Shown here in pieces: positions 42,804 to 63,238 of a DNA stretch of 64,000 nucleotides. Source of the DNA: Escherichia coli (GTDB lineage: Bacteria > Pseudomonadota > Gammaproteobacteria > Enterobacterales > Enterobacteriaceae); NCBI RefSeq assembly GCF_003019035.1, contig NZ_CP027447.1. The stretch is one strand, 5' to 3'. The notes beneath the pieces were generated by a model, which saw only the letters and a program-made list of their open reading frames with translations, had not been told where the DNA came from and searched no databases. The stretch's first letter is position 1. Each line of letters starts with the position of its first letter. A program made the translations under genes and the position numbers.

Positions 42804-43623
42804 AAGGATAAATGGCGTTCTCTGTATTTATTCGCAATTATCTGTAGGACAAATATGGAGAGCTTGATGAGTCAGAGCTAAAACAGCAATTGATTAATAA
42901 ACATGTTGATTTATTCAAGAAAATGGATGTATTTTAAATATTGATTCTTAATATAACCTAATCAATAGATTATCACGTGAGAGCTGCACATTATTGGAGG
43001 GGCAGGGGAAAACACCATTTTGGGAACAATGCATCAGGTACTCTTACCACTGAAGCAAGATCATCCGGGCACCAGGTGGTGGTGCAGTGCTTTGGAAATG
43101 GTCCCCTCGGGGGAGTTGTCATTATTTTCTATGCTATTTGCTTATTATATTCATCAGGTGAATTTAATAAATTCCTAATTTGAAATATCCACTATTAAGC
43201 TAGTGTTTAACGACGTTAAGATGGCAATGTGCAGATCATGTTATCAGGGTGGGGCGGTAGCGTATATTCCTTATACAAACCATCATTCATTTCAATGATT
43301 GTTATTGAATTATTTATTGTTGTGAATAAAAAGACATTATGAATATTGGTTTGACTTTGCATATCAGGTTTTTTATTACTCGCTGTAATGTACGAGCCTG
43401 TCGTGAATAACGTCGAGAACCCATCCGTTGCGTTTGTGATTATTTTGTTGACTAAACAGACACCCGTTTCTCTGAAGTAAAATCCCAGACTAAATCATCA
43501 CATAACCATGACATTTTTCTGATATTCCCCGGTAACGCCAGATGTCGACTCGCTTATCTCATCCGCCCGACATGTTGTACATGCAATATGTGCGGATTAT
43601 TATTCATTTTCACGGAGGTTGCT

Positions 43624-45732
43624 ATGTCAACCGGATTACGTTTCACGCTGGAAGTGGACGGCCTGCCACCGGACGCGTTTGCGGTGGTTTCCTTTCATCT
43701 CACCCAGTCACTCTCTTCACTTTTTTCCCTTGACCTTTCTCTGGTCAGTCAGCAGTTTCTCTCCCTTGAATTTGCGCAGGTGCTGGACAAAATGGCCTAC
43801 CTGACGGTATGGCAGGGCGATGACGTACAGCGCCGGGTGAAAGGCGTGGTGACCTGGTTTGAACTCGGGGAGAACGACAAAAACCAGATGCTGTACAGCA
43901 TAAAGGTGCGCCCGCCGCTGTGGCGGGCAGGACTGCGTCAGAACTTCCGTATCTTCCAGAACGAGGACATCAGAAGCATCCTCGGCACCATACTGCAGGA
44001 AAATGACGTCACGGAGTGGAGTCCGCTGTTCAGCGAGCCGCATCCTTCCCGTGAGTTTTGTGTCCAGTACGGCGAAACCGATTACGATTTCCTGTGCCGG
44101 ATGGCGGCGGAGGAAGGCATCTTCTTTTATGAGGAGCACGCGCAAAAAAGTACCGACCAGAGCCTGGTCCTGTGCGACACCGTGCGTTATCTGCCGGAGT
44201 CCTTTGAGATCCCCTGGAATCCGAACACCCGTACCGAGGTGAGCACCCTATGCATCAGCCAGTTCCTCTACAGCGCACAAATCCGCCCATCTTCCGTGGT
44301 GACCAAAGACTACACCTTTAAACGACCCGGCTGGGCAGGGCGTTTTGATCAGGAAGGCCAGCACCAGGATTACCAGCGCACACAGTATGAAGTGTATGAC
44401 TACCCCGGACGTTTCAAGGGTGCCCACGGGCAGAACTTTGCCTGCTGGCAGATGGATGGCTGGCGAAACAACGCAGAAGTGGCGCGCGGAACAAGCCGTT
44501 CGCCGGAGATATGGCCGGGACGGCGAATTGCGCTGACGGGGCATCCGCAGGCGAACCTGAACCGGGAATGGCAGGTGGTGGCAAGTGAACTGCACGGCGA
44601 GCAGCCGCAGGCGGTGCCGGGACGCAGTGGTTCAGGTACCACGCTGAATAACCACTTTGCGGTAATACCGGCAGACAGAACATGGCGGCCACAGCCGTTG
44701 CTGAAACCGCTGGTGGACGGCCCGCAGAGCGCCGTCGTGACGGGACCGGCAGGAGAAGAAATCTTCTGTGATGAACATGGCCGCGTGCGGGTGAAATTTA
44801 ACTGGGACCGTTATAACCCGTCAAACCAGGACAGTTCATGCTGGATCCGTGTGGCACAGGCGTGGGCAGGCACCGGGTTTGGTAACCTGGCGATACCGCG
44901 TGTGGGTCAGGAGGTCATTGTGGACTTCCTCAACGGCGATCCGGACCAGCCGATTATTATGGGGCGCACCTACCACCAGGAAAACCGCACCCCCGGCAGC
45001 CTGCCGGGAACAAAGACGCAAATGACCATTCGTTCAAAAACCTATAAGGGCAGCGGGTTTAATGAACTGAAGTTTGACGATGCGACAGGGAAAGAACAGG
45101 TCTACATCCACGCGCAGAAGAACATGAACACCGAGGTGCTGAATAACCGCACCACGGATGTGATAAACAACCATGCTGAGACCATCGGCAACAATCAGGT
45201 GATTGCGGTTACCAACAATCAGATACAGACGGTGGGCGTTAACCAGATAGAGACGGTGGGCAGTAACCAGATCATTAAAGTGGGCTCTGTTCAGGTGGAA
45301 ACGATTGGACTTGTTCGTGCGCTGACTGTGGGCGTGGCGTATCAGACGACGGTAGGTGGCATTATGAACACCTCGGTGGCCCTGATGCAGTCCTCGCAGA
45401 TCGGTTTGCATAAATCGTTGATGGTCGGGCTGGGTTATGACGTCAAAGTCGGAAATAACGTTACCTTCACCGTTGGTAAAACGAAAAAGGATGATACCGG
45501 GCAGACCGCGATTTACTCCGCCGGTGAGCATCTGGAACTCTGCTGTGGTAAGGCAAGGCTGGTGCTGACTAAGGACGGACAAATTTTTCTCAACGGCACA
45601 AAAATTCATTTGCAGGGTAAGGAGCAGGTTAATGGTGACTCACTGTTGATTAACTGGAACTGTGCAGCCTCGAAATCCCCACCGAAGACCCCTGATGAAA
45701 AGCAGGATACGCCGGATATGAGAGAGTACTGA
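43624..45732 (+). CDS. vgrG: Type VI secretion spike protein VgrG (orphan, no other T6SS core genes in window)
   Basis: ORF 43588-45732; start at MSTGLRFTLEVDGL with SD ggagg upstream; gp27/gp5-like N-terminus and C-terminal beta-helical repeats (VIAVTNNQIQTVGVNQIETVGSNQIIKVG). Confidence 0.9.
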   Translation: MSTGLRFTLEVDGLPPDAFAVVSFHLTQSLSSLFSLDLSLVSQQFLSLEFAQVLDKMAYLTVWQGDDVQRRVKGVVTWFELGENDKNQMLYSIKVRPPLWRAGLRQNFRIFQNEDIRSILGTILQENDVTEWSPLFSEPHPSREFCVQYGETDYDFLCRMAAEEGIFFYEEHAQKSTDQSLVLCDTVRYLPESFEIPWNPNTRTEVSTLCISQFLYSAQIRPSSVVTKDYTFKRPGWAGRFDQEGQHQDYQRTQYEVYDYPGRFKGAHGQNFACWQMDGWRNNAEVARGTSRSPEIWPGRRIALTGHPQANLNREWQVVASELHGEQPQAVPGRSGSGTTLNNHFAVIPADRTWRPQPLLKPLVDGPQSAVVTGPAGEEIFCDEHGRVRVKFNWDRYNPSNQDSSCWIRVAQAWAGTGFGNLAIPRVGQEVIVDFLNGDPDQPIIMGRTYHQENRTPGSLPGTKTQMTIRSKTYKGSGFNELKFDDATGKEQVYIHAQKNMNTEVLNNRTTDVINNHAETIGNNQVIAVTNNQIQTVGVNQIETVGSNQIIKVGSVQVETIGLVRALTVGVAYQTTVGGIMNTSVALMQSSQIGLHKSLMVGLGYDVKVGNNVTFTVGKTKKDDTGQTAIYSAGEHLELCCGKARLVLTKDGQIFLNGTKIHLQGKEQVNGDSLLINWNCAASKSPPKTPDEKQDTPDMREY

Positions 45733-45815: not shown

Positions 45816-47106
45816 CAGGGAAAGATCATCAGAAGTACACTTTTTGTACTAAACAATTCGCATTTTATGTTTAAAAATTGAGATATTCCTCATTACCTGA
45901 AGCTGTTTTTTATTGCTTATACATGATCAAATACTCCTTACATAATTAAGGAGAACAAAATGGAACTTAAAAAATTGATGGAGCATATTTCTATTATCCC
46001 CGATTACAGACAAGCCTGGAAAGTGGAACATAAATTATCGGACATTCTACTGTTGACTATTTGTGCCGTTATTTCTGGTGCAGAAGGCTGGGAAGATATA
46101 GAGGATTTTGGGGAAACACATCTCGATTTTTTGAAGCAATATGGTGATTTTGAAAATGGTATTCCTGTTCACGATACCATTGCCAGAGTTGTATCCTGTA
46201 TCAGTCCTGCAAAATTTCACGAGTGCTTTATTAACTGGATGCGTGACTGCCATTCTTCAGATGATAAAGGCGTCATTGCAATTGATGGAAAAACGCTCCG
46301 GCACTCTTATGACAAGAGTCGCCGCAGGGGAGCGATTCATGTCATTAGTGCGTTCTCAACAATGCACAGTCTGGTCATCGGACAGATCAAGACGGATGAG
46401 AAATCCAATGAGATTACAGCTATCCCAGAACTTCTTAACATGCTGGATATTAAAGGAAAAATCATCACAACTGATGCGATGGGTTGCCAGAAAGATATTG
46501 CAGAGAAGATACAAAAACAGGGAGGTGATTATTTATTCGCTGTAAAAGGAAATCAGGGGCGGCTTAATAAAGCCTTTGAGGAAAAATTTCCACTGAAAGA
46601 ATTAAATAATCCAGAGCATGACAGTTACGCAATGAGTGAAAAGAGTCACGGCAGAGAAGAAATCCGTCTTCACATTGTTTGCGATGTCCCTGATGAACTT
46701 ATTGATTTCACGTTTGAATGGAAAGGTCTGAAGAAATTATGCGTGGCAGTCTCCTTTCGGTCAATAATAGCAGAACAAAAGAAAGAGCCAGAAATGACGG
46801 TCAGATATTATATCAGTTCTGCTGATTTAACCGCAGAGAAGTTCGCCACAGCAATCCGAAACCACTGGCACGTGGAGAATAAGCTGCACTGGCGTCTGGA
46901 CGTGGTAATGAATGAAGACGACTGCAAAATAAGAAGAGGAAACGCCGCAGAATTATTTTCAGGGATACGGCACATCGCTATTAATATTTTAACGAATGAT
47001 AAGGTATTCAAGGCAGGGTTAAGACGTAAGATGCGAAAAGCTGCCATGGACAGAAACTATCTCGCGTCAGTCCTTGCGGGGAGCGGGCTTTCGTAATCTT
47101 TCCCTG
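45816..47106 (+). mobile_element. H-repeat (ISAs1-family) element, copy A, 1291 bp
   Basis: Terminal inverted repeats cagggaaaga (left) and tctttccctg (right); encodes a 378-aa transposase; nearly identical to copies at 50594-51884 and 58348-59638. Confidence 0.85.
45960..47096 (+). CDS. ISAs1-family transposase (H repeat-associated protein, YdcC/YhhI-like)
   Basis: 378-aa ORF with SD aaggag; three near-identical copies in the window. Confidence 0.88.
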
Positions 47107-48889
47107 GCTGCTGGAGTTCACGCGCGACCGCCTGCACCGGGAGACGGTGCGCAGCTTCGGCAGCATGGCAGGCAGTAATGCCGCATACGAACTGACCAGC
47201 ACATACACCCCCGCAGGCCAGTTACAGAGCCAGCACCTGAACAGCCTGGTATATGACCGTGACTACGGGTGGAGTGACAACGGCGACCTGGTGCGCATCA
47301 GCGGCCCGCGACAGACGCGGGAATACGGCTACAGCGCCACGGGCAGGCTGGAGAGTGTGCGCACCCTCGCACCGGACCTGGACATCCGCATCCCGTATGC
47401 CACGGACCCGGCGGGCAACCGGCTGCCGGACCCGGAGCTGCACCCGGACAGTACACTCACAGTGTGGCCGGATAACCGAATCACCGAAGACGCGCACTAC
47501 CTGTACCGTTACGATGAATACGGCAGGCTGACGGAGAAGACGGACCGCATCCCGGCGGGTGTGATACGGACGGACGACGAGCGGACCCACCACTACCGCT
47601 ACGACAGCCAGCACCGCCTGGTGTTCCACACGCGGATACAGCATGGCGAGCCACTGGTCGAGAGCCGCTACCTCTACGACCCGCTGGGACGGCGAATGGC
47701 AAAACGGGTCTGGCGGCGGGAGCGTGACCTGACGGGGTGGATGTCGCTGTCGCGTAAACCGGAGGAGACATGGTACGGGTGGGACGGCGACAGGCTGACG
47801 ACGGTGCAGACTGACACCACACGTATCCAGACGGTCTACCAGCCGGGGAGCTTCACGCCGCTCATCCGTATCGAGACAGAGAACGGCGAACGGGAGAAAA
47901 TGCAACGCCGCAGCCTGGCGGAGAAGTTACAGTCGGAAGGGAGTGAGGACGGTCACGGTGTGGTGTTCCCGGCTGAGCTGGTGAGGATGCTGGACAGGCT
48001 GGAGGAAGAAATCCGGGCAGACCGCGTGAGCAGTGAAAGCCGGGCGTGGCTTGCGCAGTGCGGGCTGACGGTGGAGCAACTGGCCAGACAGGTGGAGCCG
48101 GAATACACACCGGCGCGAAAAGTTCATTTTTACCACTGCGACCACCGGGGCCTGCCGCTGGCGCTCATCAGCGAAGACGGCAATACGGTGTGGAGCGGGG
48201 AGTATGATGAATGGGGCAACCAGCTTAATGAGGAGAACCCGCATCATGTGTATCAGCCATACCGCCTGCCGGGGCAGCAGTATGATGAGGAGTCGGGGCT
48301 GTACTATAACCGCAACCGGTACTATGATCCGTTGCAGGGGAGGTATATTACCCAGGATCCGATTGGGCCGGTGGGGGGGTGGAATCCCTATAGTTATGTG
48401 CTTATTAATCCAGCCCAGTTTATTGACCCAACAGGTTTAACTCAAGAGGACAATTGGACCTATGGTGAGGTAGGTAATAGCTGTGTTACGAGTCAACGCG
48501 ATTTTACTCCCCCGCCCGGACTTGCGGATATGAAAGCCAGCATTGGCGCTGCCTGCTCAAGAAACAATGCTTCCAGAAACTGCCACCCCGTAGATGGTAG
48601 TAATGCTTCTGCACCATCGGATAAAGCCGCATGGGAAAATATTCAAAATGCGACAAATGGTAAAGATTTATCTGGTGGTGGAAATATGTTTTGTGTAGGA
48701 AATGAGGACTGTGCGGTTGTTCATAGCTGTCGTGAAATAGTTAATGCTCGACACCCGGCAGGACGAGTGCGTGAACGTGTAACTCCGTTAACAACGTCAG
48801 GAACAGCAACGCTCAATGGAACAACAGTTTACTTTTATAATGATCCCCGGAATGGCAATTGTCCTGCTCACGAATATATTCCTCAATAA
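47107..48889 (+). pseudogene. rhsE: Orphan Rhs 3' fragment (rhsE-like): distal core repeats plus a divergent C-terminal toxin tip; no native start codon
   Basis: Begins abruptly at the right end of H-repeat copy A; 47107-48355 is collinear, without indels, with 55994-57242 of the intact rhs (about 93% amino-acid identity); DPIGP motif at 48356-48370; unique C-terminal about 173 codons. Confidence 0.8.
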
Positions 48890-48939
48890 AGAAAAGTGGC
48901 CAGACTAAGCTCTAGCCACATTTTTTGGAGATCCTTTTC

Positions 48940-49563
48940 ATGAAAAGGTTTTTTATAACATGTTGCGTTATGACATTATTTTTATTTGTTAAATGTAAAG
49001 CAGCGTGTGTAACTTCCTTATATGAGGTTCAGCAATCGCTCTTTACATACATTTATTTGATTAGACAAGACCCTGTTCATTTTGATTCATATATTAAGAA
49101 TGTGCATAACGAATTAAAAATATTCCATGATATTGATAAAGCAATGAATATAGCCTCAGATATGGTCAAAATTATTGATATAAAGACCCGTTTATCATTT
49201 AATAATGATTTATATATATTACAAGGGGAACGACAGTATGCAATAGTTAAGAGTGAAGGGGAAAGTAGTCAATTAAAATCATCAGCATTTATCATATCTA
49301 ATTACCCACTATTTAAAAACAAAGTTCTGTTAATTTTATCCGCTACTAGTCCCGTTCAGTTGGTTATATTGTCTTTTGATCAATGTCTTAATGTGGAGGT
49401 GTTATTTGATTCAATGTCTCCAGTTTTCGCTAAGTATAGAGAAGATATTAGTGCAACATTACCATTATGGAAGGTTATTTTGACAAAAAATGATATAGAA
49501 TTATATGAGTACCATAGAACAAATCCATACTCACTTAACAAATTATTGAGCATGTCAAAATAA
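48940..49563 (+). CDS. Putative immunity protein for the orphan Rhs-CT (AT-rich, signal-peptide-like N-terminus)
   Basis: ORF 48925-49563 (TTG) or ATG at 48940 (MKRFFITCCVMTLFLFVKCKAAC...); directly downstream of the toxin tip; low GC. Confidence 0.6.
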   Translation: MKRFFITCCVMTLFLFVKCKAACVTSLYEVQQSLFTYIYLIRQDPVHFDSYIKNVHNELKIFHDIDKAMNIASDMVKIIDIKTRLSFNNDLYILQGERQYAIVKSEGESSQLKSSAFIISNYPLFKNKVLLILSATSPVQLVILSFDQCLNVEVLFDSMSPVFAKYREDISATLPLWKVILTKNDIELYEYHRTNPYSLNKLLSMSK

Positions 49564-50004: not shown

Positions 50005-50593
50005 CAGGGCAAGATCATGAAAATCGTGATGTAAATCACAATTTTCAACCTGGCTTTAACTCCTTCAGGAGATTAAAATTTAACCTATGGAATAACTAAA
50101 AAGATAAAAAAGGACGCCAGATGAGTATTCAAAGTTTGCTTGATTATATTTCAGTGTTCCCTGATATACGACAACAAGGAAAGGTTAAACATAAATTATC
50201 TGATATTTTGTTTCTCACCGTATGTGCAGTAATTGCAGGTGCCGATGAGTGGCAGGAAATTGAAGATTTTGGACATGAAAGACTGGAATGGCTAAAGAAA
50301 TATGGTGATTTTGATAATGGCATTCCGGTCGATGACACCATTGCACGCGTTGTGAGTAACATTGACAGTTTGGCCTTTGAAAAGATGTTTATTGAATGGA
50401 TGCAGGAGTGCCATGAAATCACTGATGGTGAAATTATAGCAATAGATGGAAAGACCATAAGAGGCTCCTTTGATAAGGGAAAAAGGAAAGGAGCAATCCA
50501 TATGGTGAGTGCATTCTCGACTGAAAATGGTGTTGTACTGGGGCAGGTGAAAACGGAAGCCAAAAGTAATGAGATTACAGCCATTCCAGAGTT
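50005..50593 (+). mobile_element. Truncated H-repeat variant (fragment E) inserted into fragment D and itself cut by copy B
   Basis: Left end cagggcaagatca at 50005; transposase N-terminal 158 codons (ORF 50121..., diverged from copies A-C) ending where the copy B left IR starts at 50594. Confidence 0.7.
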
Positions 50594-51884
50594 CAGGGAA
50601 AGATCATCAGAAGTACACTTTTTGTACTAAACAATTCGCATTTTATGTTTAAAAATTGAGATATTCCTCATTACCTGAAGCTGTTTTTTATTGCTTATAC
50701 ATGATCAAATACTCCTTACATAATTAAGGAGAACAAAATGGAACTTAAAAAATTGATGGAACATATTTCTATTATCCCCGATTACAGACAAGCCTGGAAA
50801 GTGGAACATAAATTATCGGATATTCTACTGTTGACTATTTGTGCCGTTATTTCGGGTGCAGAAGGCTGGGAAGATATAGAGGATTTTGGGGAAACACATC
50901 TCGATTTTTTGAAGCAATATGGTGATTTTGATAATGGTATTCCTGTTCACGATACCATTGCCAGAGTTGTATCCTGTATCAGTCCTGCAAAATTTCACGA
51001 GTGCTTTATTAACTGGATGCGTGACTGCCATTCTTCAGATGATAAAGACGTCATCGCAATTGATGGAAAAACACTCCGGCATTCTTATGACAAGAGTCGC
51101 CGCAGGGGAGCGATTCATGTCATTAGTGCGTTCTCAACAATGCACAGTCTGGTCATCGGACAGATCAGGACGGATGAGAAATCCAATGAGATCACAGCTA
51201 TCCCTGAACTTCTTAACATGCTGGATATTAAAGGAAAAATTATCACAACTGATGCAATGGGTTGCCAGAAAGATATTGCAGAGAAGATACAAAAACAGGG
51301 CGGTGATTATTTATTCGCTGTAAAAGGAAATCAGGGTCGGCTAAATAAAGCCTTTGAGGAAAAATTCCCACTGAAAGAATTAAATAATCCAGAACATGAC
51401 AGTTACGCAATGAGTGAAAAGAGTCACGGCAGAGAAGAAATCCGTCTTCACATTGTTTGCGATGTCCCTGATGAACTTATTGATTTCACGTTTGAATGGA
51501 AAGGTCTGAAGAAATTATGCGTGGCAGTCTCCTTTCGGTCAATAATAGCAGAACAAAAGAAAGAGCCAGAAATGACGGTCAGATATTATATCAGTTCTGC
51601 TGATTTAACCGCAGAGAAGTTCGCCACAGCAATCCGAAACCACTGGCACGTGGAGAATAAGCTGCACTGGCGTCTGGACGTGGTAATGAATGAAGACGAC
51701 TGCAAAATAAGAAGAGGAAACGCCGCAGAATTATTTTCAGGGATACGGCACATCGCTATTAATATTTTGACGAATGATAAGGTATTCAAGGCAGGGTTAA
51801 GACGTAAGATGCGAAAAGCTGCCATGGACAGAAACTATCTCGCGTCAGTCCTTGCGGGGAGCGGGCTTTCGTAATCTTGCCCTG
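50594..51884 (+). mobile_element. H-repeat (ISAs1-family) element, copy B, 1291 bp
   Basis: Same IRs and length as copy A. Confidence 0.85.
50738..51874 (+). CDS. ISAs1-family transposase (H repeat-associated protein)
   Basis: 378-aa ORF, a few substitutions relative to copy A. Confidence 0.88.
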
Positions 51885-51896
51885 CTTTGTAATGGT

Positions 51897-52079
51897 ATGG
51901 CAGGAGGATATGAATTTGCAGTAAGTAAATTTGGTCAGTCGGCCTATGATGCCGCACAGGAAAAAGCATTAAATAACTATATGGAATTTGAAATGTTAGA
52001 TTTATTACAAAGCATGGGAGAGAATGTCAATCCAGATGAATATAAGCAGGCGCATGATAGAGTTGTTAATCCAAATTGA
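51897..52079 (+). CDS. Small ORF (60 aa) starting just outside the copy B right end; possibly the 3' remnant of a toxin tip
   Basis: ORF 51852-52079 begins inside the IS right end; first ATG outside the IS at 51897 (MAGGYEFAVSKFG...); stop overlaps the next gene. Confidence 0.35.
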   Translation: MAGGYEFAVSKFGQSAYDAAQEKALNNYMEFEMLDLLQSMGENVNPDEYKQAHDRVVNPN

Positions 52080-52093
52080 ATGCAGAGGGGAGT

Positions 52094-52657
52094 ATGTTAT
52101 TAAAACTGATAATGTTATTTTCAATATTTTTTATCCCGTTTTTGGCAGGTTGCAGTATGTTTGATGATGTTTTTGAGAAAAACTACTCATTGAGTTCTGT
52201 CGCCAGTTTTCCAGATGACGTTGATGAATTAAAAGAAATATGGTTTTTTTGTGAAAGATGTTTAAGTGATGAGCAGTGCGAAAATCATGACATTAAACAA
52301 TGTAGAGATGTAACTATTCCCGGTAGAGATGAAGCATTAAGTAAAGCTGTAGGCAGAGCCAATGTCGAAGCTGTTTACTTTCTTGTTGATGTGGCAAAAA
52401 CTGATGTCAATGGTATTACAGGTAAATATAAGGAAACACCATTAATTATTGCTGCATATTATGGAACTCAAGCACATCAGGATATAGCTGAATTTTTGCT
52501 ATTGCATGGGGCAGATATTAATAAAACTTACCCAGCCATTGGGCGAAATCCTCTAGGTGTCGCCAGATGGAAGCATAATGTCGATTTCGTTAATTTTCTA
52601 CTGAAGCATGGTGCTGAACCAGCAGTACATATGGGGTCGATTGAGAATAAAGAGTGA
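52094..52657 (+). CDS. Ankyrin-repeat lipoprotein (candidate immunity protein)
   Basis: ORF 52076-52657; ATG at 52094 preceded by gagggga; lipobox FLAGC; ankyrin-like repeats (TPLIIAAYYGTQAHQDIAEFLLLHGADIN, NPLGVARWKHNVDFVNFLLKHGAEP). Confidence 0.7.
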   Translation: MLLKLIMLFSIFFIPFLAGCSMFDDVFEKNYSLSSVASFPDDVDELKEIWFFCERCLSDEQCENHDIKQCRDVTIPGRDEALSKAVGRANVEAVYFLVDVAKTDVNGITGKYKETPLIIAAYYGTQAHQDIAEFLLLHGADINKTYPAIGRNPLGVARWKHNVDFVNFLLKHGAEPAVHMGSIENKE

Positions 52658-53100
52658 GATTTAACAAAAATGCAATTCATGCTCTCGCCTTGGGTGACGG
52701 TATTGATACTGCTTTTAAGTGTTCAGGAAAAATGGAAAGTGGTAAACCCTTAAAATCTTCGGGCAAATGGGATTACTCTGTTGGTGGGACAAATGGTGCC
52801 TTTCTTTATCTTAAAGACTATTCAAATATTTTGACGGCTGGCCACACAGGAAATCTGGCAGTTACTTTTCTTGGAAGTTACAATGCTCAATATTCAATAA
52901 ACGGAAACTCTCTGGATGTAGTTGTAACAAATTCTTCAACGATACAATCAGCGACACATCCCCCAATCCTGGAGTATACAAAATGGTGGCAGGATAATAT
53001 TGGTAATCCTTTGGATAGAAAATTTCAAAAAGGTCCCACGTCCCCAAAAACACAAACCATAAATTTACACTTTGATTTGTCATGTGCGTGCAAAAAATGA
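52654..53100 (+). CDS. Hypothetical protein, translationally coupled to flanking genes
   Basis: GTG at 52654 overlaps the upstream stop; alternative ATG at 52732; stop overlaps the downstream ATG (atga) at 53097. Confidence 0.5.
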   Translation: MRFNKNAIHALALGDGIDTAFKCSGKMESGKPLKSSGKWDYSVGGTNGAFLYLKDYSNILTAGHTGNLAVTFLGSYNAQYSINGNSLDVVVTNSSTIQSATHPPILEYTKWWQDNIGNPLDRKFQKGPTSPKTQTINLHFDLSCACKK

Positions 53101-53480
53101 AAATTTTATTTATGTTATTATTAATTATCTTGAGTGGATGTGATGGCGAAAATGATGCCAAATTTGTTGGGCAATGGCTTGCTGATATTGATGGTGATAT
53201 AAAATCAGAATTGATCGTGAAGGCAAATGGAATTTTTTATTTCAAGAATATGCCTATGGAGACAGTTTGTCGCGAGGATAAAACATATAAGGCTAATTTT
53301 TTCGGGGATTGGACTATTAATATTGACAATAGGATTGATATTTCAATGGATAATGTTAATTCTGAACGGTGTAATATTCCATCCTCGTATTTAATTAATG
53401 GGTTTTATGATGGTGGATATTTTTTATGTCAGAAAGGATTGTCTTTTTTCCAGACGGACCTGATGAGCCAGGTAATATGA
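53097..53480 (+). CDS. Small lipoprotein (candidate immunity protein)
   Basis: ORF 53082-53480; ATG at 53097 (MKILFMLLLIILSGCDGEND) with lipobox LSGC; AT-rich. Confidence 0.6.
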   Translation: MKILFMLLLIILSGCDGENDAKFVGQWLADIDGDIKSELIVKANGIFYFKNMPMETVCREDKTYKANFFGDWTINIDNRIDISMDNVNSERCNIPSSYLINGFYDGGYFLCQKGLSFFQTDLMSQVI

Positions 53481-53549: not shown

Positions 53550-56500
53550 ATGAGCGGAAAACCCGCGGCACGCCAGGGTGATGCCACGCTGAAAGGCGGT
53601 CCGATAGTCCAGGGGTCAGCGGGGGTGCTGATAGGCGCGCCCACCGGCGTGGCGTGCTCGGTGTGTCCGGGCGGGATGACTTCGGGCAACCCGGTAAATC
53701 CGCTGCTGGGGGCGAAGGTGCTGCCCGGCGAGACGGACCTTGCCCTGCCCGGCCCGCTGCCGTTCATTCTCTCCCGCACCTACAGCAGCTACCGGACGAG
53801 GACGCCTGCCCCGGTGGGCGTTTTCGGCCCCGGCTGGAAAGCGCCTTCGGATATCCGCTTACAGCTACGTGATGACGCACTGATACTCAACGACAACGGC
53901 GGGCGGAGCATTCACTTTGAGCCGCTGCTGCCGGGGGAGGCGGTGTACAGCCGCAGCGAGTCAATGTGGCTGGTGCGCGGTGGTAAGGCAGCGCAGCCGG
54001 ACGGCCACACGCTGGCGCGACTGTGGGGGGCGCTGCCGCCGGATATCCGGTTAAGCCCGCATCTTTACCTGGCGACCAACAGCGCACAGGGGCCGTGGTG
54101 GATACTCGGCTGGTCAGAGCGGGTGCCGGGTACTGAGGACGTACTGCCAGCGCCGCTGCCGCCGTACCGGGTGCTTACCGGGCTGGCGGACCGCTTCGGG
54201 CAGACGCTGACGTACCGGCGTGAGGCCGCCGGTGACCTGGCCGGGGAAATCACCGGCGTGACGGACGGTGCCGGGCGGAAGTTCCGTCTGGTGCTGACCA
54301 CGCAGGCGCAGCGTGCGGAAGAGGCCCGCACCTCTTCGCTATCTTCTTCTGACCGTTCCCGCCCTCTCTCAGCCTCAGCGTTCCCCGACACACTGCCCGG
54401 TACGGAATACGGCCCCGACAGGGGCATCCGTCTTTCGGCGGTGTGGCTGATGCACGACCCGGCATACCCGGAAAGCCTGCCCGGTGCGCCACTGGCGCGG
54501 TACACGTATACGGAAGCCGGTGAACTGCTGGCGGTATATGACCGCAGCAATACGCAGGTGCGCGCTTTCACGTATGACGCGCAGCACCCGGGCCGGATGG
54601 TGGCGCACCGTTACGCGGGAAGGCCGGAGATGCGCTACCGCTACGACGATACGGGGCGGGTGGTGGAGCAACTGAACCCGGCAGGGTTAAGCTACCGCTA
54701 TCTTTATGAGCAGGACCGCATCACCATCACGGACAGCCTGAACCGGCGAGAGGTGCTGCATACAGAAGGCGGGGCCGGGCTGAAGCGGGTGGTGAAAAAA
54801 GAACTGGCGGACGGCAGCGTCACGCACAGCGGGTATGACGCGGCAGGAAGGCTCACGGCACAGACGGACGCGGCGGGACGGCAGACAGAGTACGGTCTGA
54901 ATGTGGTGTCAGGCGATATCACGGACATCACCACGCCGGACGGGCGGGAGACGAAATTTTACTATAACGACGGGAACCAGGTGACGGCAGTGGTGTCCCC
55001 GGACGGGCTGGAGAGCCGCCGGGCGTATGATGAGCGGGACAGGCTGGTAACGGAGACATCGCGCAGTGGGGACGTCATCCGGTATGCTTATGATAATCCG
55101 CACAGTGAATTACCGGCCACGACAACAGATGCGACGGGCAGCACCCGGCAGATGACCTGGAGCCGCTACGGGCAGTTGCTGGCGTTCACCGACTGCTCGG
55201 GCTACCAGACCCGCTATGAATACGACCGCTTCGGCCAGATGACGGCGGTCCACCGCGAGGAAGGCATCAGCCTTTACCGCCGCTATGACAACCGTGGCCG
55301 GTTAACCTCGGTGAAAGACGCACAGGCCCGTGAAACGCAGTATGAGTACAACGCCGCAGGCGACCTGACTGCCGTTATCACCCCGGATGGCAACCGGAGT
55401 GAGACACAGTACGATGGGTGGGGAAAGGCCATCAGCACCACGCAGGGCGGGCTGACGCGCAGTATGGAGTACGATGCTGCCGGACGTATCACCACGCTGA
55501 CTAACGAGAACGGCAGCCACAGCGACTTTAGTTACGATGCGCTGGACCGCCTGATACAGCAGGGCGGCTTTGACGGGCGGACGCAACGTTATCATTATGA
55601 CCTGACCGGAAAACTCACGCAGAGTGAAGATGAGGGGCTTGTCATCCTCTGGTACTACGATGAATCGGACCGTATTACTCACCGCACGGTAAACGGTGAA
55701 CCGGCAGAACAGTGGCGGTATGACGGCCACGGCTGGCTGAGAGAAATCAGCCACCTGAGCGAAGGCCACCGTGTTGCCGTCCACTATGGCTATGATAATA
55801 AAGGCCGCCTGACCAGTGAGCGCCAGACGGTGCATCACCCGGAGACGGGAGAGCTGCTCTGGCAGCATGAGACCGGACATGCGTACAACGAACAGGGGCT
55901 GGCAAACCGCGTCACGCCGGACAGTCTGCCGCCGGTGGAGTGGCTGACCTATGGTAGCGGTTATCTGGCAGGCATGAAGCTGGGCGGGACGCCGCTGCTG
56001 GAGTTCACGCGCGACCGCCTGCACCGTGAGACGGTGCGCAGCTTCGGCAGCATGGCAGGCAGTAATGCCGCATACGAACTGACCAGCACATACACCCCTG
56101 CAGGCCAGTTACAGAGTCAGCACCTGAACAGCCTGGTGTATGACCGTGACTACGGGTGGAATGACAACGGAGACCTGGTGCGCATCAGCGGCCCGCGACA
56201 GACGCGGGAATACGGCTACAGCGCCACGGGCAGGCTGGAGAGTGTGCGCACCCTCGCACCGGACCTGGACATCCGCATCCCGTATGCCACGGACCCGGCG
56301 GGCAACCGGCTGCCGGACCCGGAGCTGCACCCGGACAGTACACTCACAGTGTGGCCGGATAACCGCATCGCGGAGGATGCGCACTATGTCTACCGCCACG
56401 ATGAATACGGCAGGCTGACGGAGAAGACGGACCGCATCCCGGCGGGTGTGATACGGACGGACGACGAGCGGACCCACCACTACCACTACGACAGCCAGCA

Positions 56501-57803
56501 CCGCCTGGTGTTCTACACGCGGATACAGCATGGCGAGCCACTGGTCGAGAGCCGCTACGTCTACGACCCGCAGGGACGGCGAATGGCGAAACGGGTATGG
56601 CGGCGGGAGCGTGACCTGACGGGGTGGATGTCGCTGTCGCGTAAACCGGAGGTGACGTGGTACGGCTGGGACGGCGACCACCTGACGACGGTGCAGACCG
56701 ACAGCACACGTATCCAGACGGTATACGAGCCGGGAAGCTTCACACCGCTCATCCGCATCGAAACAGACAACGGCGAGCGGGAGAAAACGCAGCGGCGGAG
56801 CCTGGCGGAGAAGCTCCAGCAGGAAGGGAGCGAGGACGGACACGGTGTGGTGTTCCCGGCTGAACTGGTGAGGATGCTGGACAGGCTGGAGGAAGAAATC
56901 CGGGCAGACCGCGTGAGCGGTGAAAGCCGGACGTGGCTTGCACAGTGCGGGCTGGCGGTGGAGCAACTGGAAAAACAGGTGGAGCCGGAATACACGCCGG
57001 AACGCACACTGCATCTTTACCACTGCGACCACCGGGGACTGCCGCTGGCGCTTATCAGCGAAGACGGCAATACGGTGTGGAGCGCGGAGTATGATGAATG
57101 GGGAAACCTGCTTAATGAGGAGAACCCGCATCATGTGTATCAGTCATACCGTCTGCCGGGGCAGCAGCATGATGAGGAGTCGGGGCTGTATTATAACCGG
57201 AACCGGTACTATGACCCGCTACAGGGGAGGTATATCACCCAGGATCCAATCGGGCTAAGAGGTGAATGGAATCTGTATAAATATCCATTAAACCCTGTTC
57301 GGTTTATAGATTCTTTGGGTTTAAAATTCCATGTTAACGGTGATCCAAGTGATTTTAATCAGGCTGTTGAGTATTTAAAACAAGATTCACGAATGAAAGA
57401 AGCTATAGATTTTTTATCAAGCTCTGAAGAAACCATAAAGATAGAGTATATTGATGAAACCGACGTTAGATTTGACCCGGATAAAATGACTATATATTGG
57501 AATGGTAAGGCGGCTTTATTTTGTTCAACTGATTTAAAATCGAAATCACAATCACCTGCATTAGGTTTGGGGCATGAGTTTGCTCATGCGCACTTATATC
57601 TTATTGATAAGGATGGTTATATGGGGCTTGTGAGACGTGCGGATGAACAATATAAAAATAAAGAAGAGGCGAGAGTTATCACTTTAATTGAACAGCATGC
57701 GGCGAAAACTTTAGGTGAGTGTACCAGAACAGCATATAATGGAGTGTATTATCGTGTGAATACACCAACGCAGACGGCAACAATAAATGGCACGCCAGAA
57801 TAG
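53550..57803 (+). CDS. rhs: Full-length Rhs polymorphic toxin: PAAR-like N-terminus, YD-repeat shell, DPxGL autoproteolysis motif, C-terminal HExxH-containing toxin tip
   Basis: 1417-aa ORF with SD aaggag; N-terminal [11 protein letters not shown]...CSVCPGG; RHS/YD repeats; PxxxxDPIGL at 57243-57257; C-terminal about 180 aa contain [11 protein letters not shown]. Confidence 0.92.
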
Positions 57804-57815
57804 TGAGATTTTTTT

Positions 57816-58265
57816 ATGATGAAATATTTGATGGTTTTATTGTCTCTATTTTCTGCTTCGGTATTGGGGATGGGGCGAGTGAATGAATTGTGTGGAATAG
57901 ATAGTGTGAAAACGATAGAAATAATTAATCTTCCAGCATATGTTACCACCTTAACCCCGCTTAGCAAGGAAGGTCTCAAGAGAATATACAAACATAAAGT
58001 GGTGGTGAATGGAGTTAGCGATTTTTATGCTGGTGAGATAATTGATTTATTGCAAATGAAGTATTTCAGGAAGGAGGAGAATAACGATATAAGATGGGGG
58101 GTTGACATTGTTTCGAATAAAAATAATAAATGTGAAATTTATTTTGATGGTTTTGGTGAATGTGGAAGTGTGAATGGCATTAACGTATGTTTTGAAAAAA
58201 ATGAAATGATAGATTGGATTAAAAAAGAAATCCCTTTTCTGTCGCAAGAAATAGGTGGTCTTTAA
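57816..58265 (+). CDS. Putative cognate immunity protein with N-terminal signal peptide
   Basis: 149-aa ORF 12 nt downstream of the rhs stop; hydrophobic N-terminus MMKYLMVLLSLFSASVLG; AT-rich. Confidence 0.7.
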   Translation: MMKYLMVLLSLFSASVLGMGRVNELCGIDSVKTIEIINLPAYVTTLTPLSKEGLKRIYKHKVVVNGVSDFYAGEIIDLLQMKYFRKEENNDIRWGVDIVSNKNNKCEIYFDGFGECGSVNGINVCFEKNEMIDWIKKEIPFLSQEIGGL

Positions 58266-58322: not shown

Positions 58323-58372
58323 CAGGGAAAGATCACGTAACGCTGCTCAGGGAAAGATCACGTAACGCTGCT
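58323..58372 (+). repeat. Perfect 25-bp tandem duplication of the H-repeat left terminus
   Basis: cagggaaagatcacgtaacgctgct occurs twice in direct tandem (58323-58347 and 58348-58372); measured from the second unit the element is 1291 bp, the same as copies A and B. Confidence 0.85.
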
Positions 58373-59638
58373 TTTTTGTACTAAACAATCCGCATTTTAT
58401 GTTTAAAAATTGAGATATTCCTCATTACCTAAAGCTGTTTTTTATTGCTTATACATGATCAAATACTCCTTACATAATTAAGGAGAACAAAATGGAACTT
58501 AAAAAATTGATGGAACATATTTCTATTATCCCCGATTACAGACAAGCCTGGAAAGTGGAACATAAATTATCGGATATTCTACTGTTGACTATTTGTGCCG
58601 TTATTTCGGGTGCAGAAGGCTGGGAAGATATAGAGGATTTTGGGGAAACACATCTCGATTTTTTGAAGCAATATGGTGATTTTGATAATGGTATTCCTGT
58701 TCACGATACCATTGCCAGAGTTGTATCCTGTATCAGTCCTGCAAAATTTCACGAGTGCTTTATTAACTGGATGCGTGACTGCCATTCTTCAGATGATAAA
58801 GACGTCATCGCAATTGATGGAAAAACACTCCGGCATTCTTATGACAAGAGTCGCCGCAGGGGAGCGATTCATGTCATTAGTGCGTTCTCAACAATGCACA
58901 GTCTGGTCATCGGACAGATCAGGACGGATGAGAAATCCAATGAGATCACAGCTATCCCTGAACTTCTTAACATGCTGGATATTAAAGGAAAAATTATCAC
59001 AACTGATGCAATGGGTTGCCAGAAAGATATTGCAGAGAAGATACAAAAACAGGGCGGTGATTATTTATTCGCTGTAAAAGGAAACCAGGGGCGGCTAAAT
59101 AAAGCCTTCGAGGAAAAATTTCCGCTGAAAGAATTAAATAATCCAGAGCATGACAGTTACGCAATGAGTGAAAAGAGTCACGGCAGAGAAGAAATCCGTC
59201 TTCACATTTTTTGCGATGTCCCTGATGAACTTATTGATTTCACGTTTGAATGGAAAGGTCTGAAGAAATTATGCGTGGCAGTCTCCTTTCGGTCAATAAT
59301 AGCAGAACAAAAGAAAGAGCCAGAAATGACGGTCAGATATTATATCAGTTCTGCTGATTTAACCGCAGAGAAGTTCGCCACAGCAATCCGAAACCACTGG
59401 CACGTGGAGAATAAGCTGCACTGGCGTCTGGACGTGGTAATGAATGAAGACGACTGCAAAATAAGAAGAGGAAATGCAGCAGAATTATTTTCAGGGATAC
59501 GGCACATCGCTATTAATATTTTGACGAATGATAAGGTATTCAAGGCAGGGTTAAGACGTAAGATGCGAAAAGCAGCCATGGACAGAAACTATCTGGCGTC
59601 AGTCCTTGCGGGGAGCGGGCTTTCGTAATCTTTCCCTG
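58348..59638 (+). mobile_element. H-repeat (ISAs1-family) element, copy C, 1291 bp
   Basis: Same terminal IRs; internal bases 14-25 differ from copies A and B (cgtaacgctgct versus tcagaagtacac). Confidence 0.85.
58492..59628 (+). CDS. ydcC: ISAs1-family transposase (H repeat-associated protein, ydcC-equivalent position)
   Basis: 378-aa ORF; position before yddH corresponds to ydcC of reference strains. Confidence 0.8.

Positions 59639-62014: not shown

Positions 62015-63238
<1,224 letters not shown>

Follow-up and report, generated by a model that had tools for sequence, protein, structure and literature searches.

Within a 64,000-nucleotide (nt) stretch of the Escherichia coli contig NZ_CP027447.1, hereafter the window, an Rhs gene encoding 1417 amino acids (aa) and a small gene immediately downstream of it probably constitute a type VI secretion system (T6SS) effector-immunity pair, in which a C-terminal protease tip of the M91 type would act in the cell envelope of competitors, with the downstream gene supplying an exported immunity protein. 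An earlier account drawn from the letters alone (the sequence-only reading) had singled out the pair as an intact PAAR-Rhs toxin carrying an HExxH signature, with a secreted immunity partner, and had considered it both unusual and uncharacterised. The two open reading frames (ORFs), 53550-57803 and 57816-58265, are as it described them, on the same strand and separated by exactly 12 nt (57804-57815), and the HExxH signature is present as HEFAH. The pair is, nevertheless, a minority allele of an already catalogued kind and reveals no new kind of system. Its features, in the order of the sequence, are as follows.

53550-57803, + strand: gene for a 1417-aa Rhs core protein that ends in a toxin domain, an uninterrupted ORF of 4.25 kb
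53550-53675, + strand: PAAR-like N-terminus, residues 1-42, with a literal PAAR at residues 5-8
53685-53918, + strand: DUF6531 domain, residues 46-123 (Pfam, E=1.5e-18)
57243-57257, + strand: first DPxGL motif, DPIGL, residues 1232-1236, read from the sequence
57309-57323, + strand: second motif, DSLGL, residues 1254-1258, with Ser replacing Pro, 17 residues past DPIGL; both core models end at 1258
57324-57800, + strand: toxin tip, residues 1259-1417, 159 aa, a predicted minimal zincin resembling M91 peptidases and the botulinum neurotoxin (BoNT) light chain
57522-57524, + strand: Cys67 of the tip, which may form a disulfide with Cys133 (57720-57722)
57573-57587, + strand: putative zinc-binding and catalytic motif HEFAH, on helix 78-94 of the tip; H84, E85 and H88 of the tip are H1342, E1343 and H1346 of the protein
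57690-57692, + strand: E123 of the tip (E1381), the putative third zinc ligand, 35 residues past the second His as in BoNT
57726-57737, + strand: RTAY, an RxxY-type active-site motif (R135 and Y138 of the tip)
57816-58265, + strand: candidate cognate immunity protein, 149 aa, of the 'dsORF-h1' type, with Cys at positions 26, 106, 116 and 125
57816-57869, + strand: signal-peptide-like N-terminus of the partner, residues 1-18, from hydropathy

The Rhs shell is intact, as the sequence-only reading had it, since the NCBIfam RHS_core equivalog NF041261 matches over its full length (model positions 1-1261 over residues 1-1258) with 2717 bits (cutoff, 2000), and the YD repeats score 152 bits. The PAAR part of that description fared less well, the Pfam PAAR_motif giving a weak match to residues 3-29 (E=0.35); the same N-terminus has been termed PAAR in a study of Salmonella Dublin (PMC8867033). 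No transmembrane segment was found in the first 400 residues of the protein, where the maximum hydropathy over 19 residues is 1.3.

The core closes with two DPxGL-type motifs, 17 residues between them, of the PxxxxDPxGL demarcation. DPIGL lies where it had been reported, and the toxin had been taken to extend over roughly 180 residues after it, a boundary that has to be moved to the second motif, within IDSLGL (57306-57323). In Photorhabdus Rhs1 the catalytic Asp lies in the second motif and the toxin begins directly after it (D1338/A1343; PMC8636562), and a second core model, TIGR03696 (Rhs_assc_core), matches residues 1181-1258 of the E. coli protein with 81.7 bits. On this analogy, and because both core models end at residue 1258, the tip starts at K1259 and comprises 159 aa. 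By the same comparison we infer that D1254 is the catalytic Asp for autoproteolysis and that the cut would fall after L1258, and conservation of the motifs likewise points to autoproteolytic release of the tip. The GC content drops from about 0.64 in the Rhs core to 0.38-0.44 in the tip and is lower still, at 0.33, in the gene for the partner; the fall at the tip is the usual composition break between Rhs core and tip.

An HExxH motif occurs by chance in an estimated 1 in 20 or so proteins of this size, and the significance of the tip rests on family-wide invariance and on the predicted fold rather than on the motif itself. A full-database search yielded 591 tip homologues at E<=1e-3, many of which stand at the C-terminal end of longer proteins, immediately behind DPxGL-like motifs. 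Among 114 non-redundant homologues, over which conservation was computed, H84, E85, H88 and E123 are conserved in every sequence, with E115 at 99%, R135 at 98% and E132 at 95%. Of 38 aligned homologues, 26 match PF14891 (Peptidase_M91) with E<=1e-3 (lowest E, 5.9e-9), and relatives from Hafnia that are 43-45% identical to the tip are annotated as M91. HExxH, a third-ligand Glu and RxxY are features common to M91 peptidases and BoNT light chains (PMC6367388), and in the profile of the tip family a stretch xSPALxLxHExxH (x, variable) aligns to the zinc motif HELIH of BoNT/E.

The AlphaFold2 model of the tip, computed with the homologue alignment, reached a predicted local distance difference test score (pLDDT) of 96 and a predicted template modelling score of 0.91, and it assigns HExxH to helix 78-94 and E123 to helix 113-130, in a fold resembling the zincin of the BoNT light chain. 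Foldseek searches against AFDB50 located the same fold at the ends of many proteins annotated 'RHS repeat-associated core', including those of Prevotella, Bacteroides and Chryseobacterium, and Salmonella Rhs tips in AFDB share it at 34-37% identity. The tip is thus predicted to be a genuine zincin-type metallopeptidase domain of the M91 (NleD/HopH1) type, a minimal gluzincin endopeptidase with a core common to this family and the light chains of clostridial neurotoxins, and the zincin-like character attributed to it earlier is borne out. Two other zincin families were considered and set aside: Tox-MPTase4 (PF15640) has no Pfam match to the tip or to any of the 38 homologues, and the family of the VgrG2b C-terminal domain and its immunity protein PA0261 was rejected because the tip shows no similarity to the VgrG2b effector domain. 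Within the tip family Cys133 is found only where a Cys near position 67 is also present (22 homologues with both, none with Cys133 alone, a count made without phylogenetic control), which hints at a disulfide in the toxin.

The partner begins MMK-YLMVLLSLFSASVL-GMGR, with K3 followed by a hydrophobic core of 14 residues (Y4-L17), too short to span a membrane; several possible cleavage sites have small residues at -3/-1. Its four cysteines are found without exception in the homologues from E. coli and Shigella. UniRef and RefSeq give close homologues the name 'RHS element protein dsORF-h1', none of them has a Pfam domain, and a literature search on RhsH/dsORF returned unrelated papers only. A weak Pfam match of the partner and of the cross-phylum alignment to DUF7584 (E=0.017) was rejected as uninformative. 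Hydropathy, the invariant cysteines and the linkage across phyla described next agree with the earlier proposal that this is an immunity protein with a secretion-type N-terminus, and they support the view that the downstream ORF would behave as a cognate exported immunity protein.

For the comparative scan one genome per species was taken for relatives of the tip, giving 70 loci at which the downstream ORFs were inspected. In 18 of the loci the M91-like domain forms the end of a long polymorphic-toxin ORF; at 14 of these the ORF next downstream starts with a hydrophobic segment, Sec-like or with a lipobox, and is in most cases 116-190 aa long, and an adjacent partner lacking such an N-terminus was seen at none of the 18. 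A jackhmmer search started from the E. coli partner recovered ORFs directly downstream of M91-like toxins at nine loci, eight of them in Eremiobacterota, Omnitrophota and Acidobacteriota. The eight distant homologues share D-x-R-W-G and Y-x-D-x-F-G motifs, and among the partner homologues one carries a lipobox (L033) and several carry Sec-type signals (L011, L027 and L071). By sequence comparison, then, genes of the partner family accompany M91-like toxins in four phyla. The ninth locus (L004; JAIJJM010000683.1, 1670 bp), assigned to a metagenome-assembled genome (MAG) of 'Collinsella sp.', combines an E. coli Rhs core end, which reads DPIGL...IDSLGL, with a tip that shares 73% identity with that of the window and with a dsORF-h1-type partner; it is almost certainly of E. 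coli origin and was wrongly binned with Collinsella. Many loci from Candidatus Eremiobacterota MAGs (within L005-L063) encode stand-alone M91-like proteins, often several per genome, with 10-100 in-frame residues before the domain and no Rhs shell, and some of these have as partner a homologue of the E. coli immunity protein that lacks an export signal.

The module, or a close allele of it, is present in 1082 of 5426 complete E. coli genomes (about 20%). The allele in the window is the rarer one, occurring in about 51 genomes at >=95% identity, as against about 980 at 80-90%. Compared with it, other alleles from E. coli and Shigella are 73% and 53% identical in the toxin and 85% and 74% in the partner, a pattern in which toxin and partner evidently diversify together. 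Strain 1190 carries a tip and partner 99.7% identical to those of the window directly after Hcp-VgrG in a T6SS-1 cluster, while in strain ETEC1720 (H50) an immunity-only remnant persists. RhsD/YbbC of E. coli K-12 was checked owing to one match named 'rhsD' and was dismissed, YbbC being a PF15631 protein of a different module.

Several described systems resemble the pair to differing degrees. Tox-HopH1/NleD-like tips on RHS toxins, with linkage to T6SS, were catalogued in 2012 (Zhang et al., PMC3482391), no immunity family being given. The window tip shares with them an HExxH zincin at the C-terminus of an RHS toxin and the T6SS link, and 26 of its 38 aligned homologues match PF14891, but it is divergent, short at 159 aa and by itself under the Pfam threshold; NleD itself differs in that it is a type III effector aimed at the host and has no immunity protein. 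A precedent in function is SED_RS06335 of Salmonella Dublin, a PAAR-RHS-Peptidase_M91 protein encoded on Salmonella pathogenicity island 19 (SPI-19) which acts in interbacterial competition and against which SED_RS06340 protects (PMC8867033; 2022). SED_RS06335 (1406 aa) belongs to the same Rhs family, with a matching N-terminus encoded in the published deletion primer, and has an M91 tip with HExxH; its C-terminal ends, as deduced from the published primers only, are unlike the window tip and match no retrieved homologue. SED_RS06340 is likewise a small downstream gene product with a hydrophobic N-terminus, but it has 110 aa and was called '1 TM' (one transmembrane segment), against 149 aa for the partner here. 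A 2024 preprint describes an Rhs-M91 protein encoded downstream of VgrG in Shiga toxin-producing E. coli (STEC) O22:H8, reports no homology for its partner and assumes cytoplasmic action (10.1101/2024.03.05.583533). Within E. coli the closest match is the RhsH extension with dsORF-h1, the partner being 85% identical to dsORF-h1 proteins and the toxin 73% identical to the associated tip; the window differs in carrying the rarer allele, at the yncH-nhoA (rhsE) locus.

For the mode of action there is a worked parallel in VgrG2b of Pseudomonas aeruginosa, a T6SS HExxH metallopeptidase that is toxic in the periplasm only and is countered by the immunity protein PA0261, which needs a signal peptide and disulfide formation and whose orthologues use Sec, lipoprotein or transmembrane-anchor routes (PMC6899460). 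VgrG2b and PA0261 work like the mechanism that we propose for the window pair, differing in that the effector domain is fused to VgrG instead of lying in an Rhs shell and in that the immunity families are unrelated. This precedent, together with the other three candidate immunity ORFs of the island (described below), all of which have a lipobox or a hydrophobic N-terminus so that export signals are the rule there, removes the earlier claim that the pair is unusual. The description of it as uncharacterised does not survive the 2012 catalogue of M91 tips, the Salmonella Dublin pair, the 2024 preprint and its abundance among E. coli genomes. The clostridial neurotoxin light chains (M27) show the same arrangement of HExxH, a Glu 35 residues further on and RxxY, but are about 14-21% identical to the tip and differ in delivery route and target; M91 peptidases are without the substrate-binding insertions of BoNT light chains (Mansfield et al., PMC6367388).

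We regard the following mechanism as probable. The YD-repeat shell would enclose the toxin domain, and the short PAAR-like N-terminus would let the Rhs protein ride on a VgrG spike. Once in the target cell, its aspartyl-protease plug would cut after DSLGL (L1258), freeing a tip in which zinc would be held by H1342, H1346 and E1381, E1343 would serve as catalytic base and R1393/Y1396 would stabilise the transition state. The protease is envisaged to cut a protein or peptide substrate in the envelope of rival bacteria. The 149-aa partner, Sec-exported and folded with disulfides in the periplasm, would bind and block it. Since the immunity protein appears to be exported, periplasmic action, which the sequence-only reading had deduced from the partner, is a reasonable conclusion, and a periplasmic site of action in E. 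coli is plausible.

A more far-reaching version of the proposal, tentative and in our view possible rather than probable, is that the tip represents a minimal botulinum-light-chain-like protease which kills from the periplasmic side by cutting one specific envelope protein and is neutralised by an exported immunity family, not yet in Pfam, that is toxin-linked from Proteobacteria to Eremiobacterota, and that interbacterial Rhs tips of its type are ancestral to NleD/M91 and perhaps to the protease lineage of the clostridial neurotoxins. Were this so, the substrate would constitute a new envelope vulnerability. Identifying the substrate would account for a weapon widespread in competition among E. 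coli, the module being carried by about one fifth of complete genomes; it would also show what role a BoNT/NleD-type protease core plays inside bacteria.

The observations that weigh against the proposal of an envelope-acting M91-type effector concern, in turn, the tip, the partner, the target and the setting of the module. By itself the tip falls below significance against Pfam M91 (E=0.056-0.086), and single-sequence searches of Pfam, NCBIfam and the PDB (phmmer) gave nothing significant. At position 138, where 91% of the relatives have His and the motif thus mostly reads RxxH, it has Tyr, a residue seen there in 5 of 126, though BoNT also has Tyr at this position. An incidental HExxH on a non-peptidase fold would account for the low scores, with E values of about 0.06-0.09 to Pfam M91 and no significant phmmer match in the PDB, but it would leave unexplained the H, E, H and downstream Glu that are invariant in 114 homologues and the M91 matches of 26 of 38. 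This explanation was already effectively refuted and retains hardly any probability: the profile and structure-prediction searches of the tip gave it no foothold, and the peptidase reading stands.

For the partner, the signal cleavage site is ambiguous and the signal call heuristic, and AlphaFold2, given a shallow alignment of 8 close homologues, returned a pLDDT of 50.5, too poor a model for a fold search. Three Eremiobacterota homologues (L010, L022 and L028), paired with stand-alone toxins, have no export signal. Further E. coli Rhs proteins that share this N-terminus are said to bear nuclease tips acting in the cytoplasm; the N-terminus, if so, is uninformative on the compartment. These points could be read to mean that the same Rhs-M91 protease acts in the target cytoplasm, with immunity exerted at the cytoplasmic face and the N-terminus of the partner a membrane anchor or irrelevant. 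The three signal-less homologues fit such a scheme, as do the annotation of the Salmonella Dublin partner as '1 TM' rather than as a signal peptide, the cytoplasmic action assumed in the STEC preprint and the fact that the characterised M91, NleC and BoNT proteases work in a cytosol. It is harder to reconcile with a hydrophobic segment of only about 14 residues with Lys on its N-terminal side, with four invariant Cys in the partner and a co-occurring Cys pair in the toxin, with the recurrence of Sec-type and lipoprotein signals on partners across phyla, and with an Rhs N-terminus that has no transmembrane domain to help in crossing the inner membrane. We regard cytoplasmic action as improbable.

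As to the target, the remaining four of the 18 long polymorphic-toxin loci, of the Saprospiraceae type, have no adjacent partner gene. They lend something to the idea that the tip is NleD-like and cuts proteins of a eukaryotic host, in which case the downstream ORF would not be an immunity gene; NleD, like other members of M91, is indeed a type III effector directed at the host. An anti-eukaryotic role is, even so, very unlikely for the E. coli pair, given the linkage of the partner and toxin families in four phyla that include free-living environmental bacteria, the co-diversification of toxin and partner into alleles in E. coli and Shigella, the existence of an immunity-only remnant and the immunity-dependent interbacterial killing by the related Salmonella pair. 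The Saprospiraceae/Lewinella loci themselves (L038, L041, L044 and L064, all from MAGs) encode long M91-like proteins that end in a basic tail (e.g. ...KRPRRQRN) with no adjacent small downstream gene, which suggests use without immunity, possibly against non-self or eukaryotic targets.

The setting of the module raises a different kind of doubt. The island is flanked by yncG, yncH, a GNAT gene, yddH, nhoA and yddE, which places it at the E. coli rhsE locus (yncH-nhoA), and it contains the following further features.

43588-45732, + strand: intact VgrG, 714 aa, on the yncH side of the island (TIGR03361, 623.8 bits)
45816-46140, 50594-50918 and 58348-58672: three near-identical ISAs1 (H-repeat) copies in direct orientation, bracketing the Rhs modules
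45960-47096, 50738-51874 and 58492-59628: ISAs1 ORFs
47147-48889: orphan Rhs core fragment, its core 91% identical to residues 829-1258 of the full-length Rhs

The VgrG is likely to be the spike partner of the 1417-aa Rhs, but it is separated from it by ISAs1 copies and orphan modules, and core genes of the T6SS are absent from the window. The module could, accordingly, be intact in sequence and yet idle in the source strain, moved away from VgrG by ISAs1 rearrangement, possibly with no working T6SS, and kept mainly for its immunity gene. The three direct ISAs1 copies that bracket the modules, the position of the full-length Rhs downstream of orphan fragments in departure from the usual vgrG-rhs order, and the lack of T6SS core genes in the window all speak for this, as does the annotation of this Rhs as frameshifted or N-terminally truncated in many genomes. 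The ORF is, for its part, uninterrupted over 4.25 kb and preceded just 5' of its start codon by a ribosome-binding site with a strong Shine-Dalgarno sequence, AAGGAG, and the VgrG of the island is intact. An idle module carries a real but minor share of the probability, and it is compatible with the best explanation of what the module is, that of an M91-type Rhs effector with an exported immunity protein. In SCU-301, the closest complete genome, the annotation gives the VgrG and Rhs genes and several transposase genes a frameshift or an internal stop, possibly due to assembly errors.

The orphan Rhs fragment shows no alignment with the full-length Rhs beyond residue 1258, and the two tips are unrelated, as had been noted earlier. 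Its own tip has 149 aa, is cysteine-rich and has no sequence match in the PDB. It is followed by an ORF of 212 aa (48925-49563) with a hydrophobic, Cys-containing N-terminus, and the two together form a second candidate envelope-directed toxin-immunity pair. Just 5' of the full-length Rhs, the region 51852-53480 holds four small ORFs: first a 75-aa fragment, and with it a 193-aa ankyrin-repeat lipoprotein (lipobox LAGC), a 148-aa protein that ends in CACKK and has no match in Pfam or NCBIfam, and a 132-aa lipoprotein (lipobox LSGC). These look like two further orphan effector-immunity remnants. CxCKK-like tails similar to that of the 148-aa protein are also present on some distant M91-like homologues.

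The ISAs1 copies at 50.7 and 58.5 kb, which differ by one residue, flank the Rhs-M91 pair in the manner of a composite element, and a fourth, truncated copy lies at 50121-50630. A gene for an IS621 (IS110-family) transposase (62035-63015, - strand) is inserted between nhoA and yddE.

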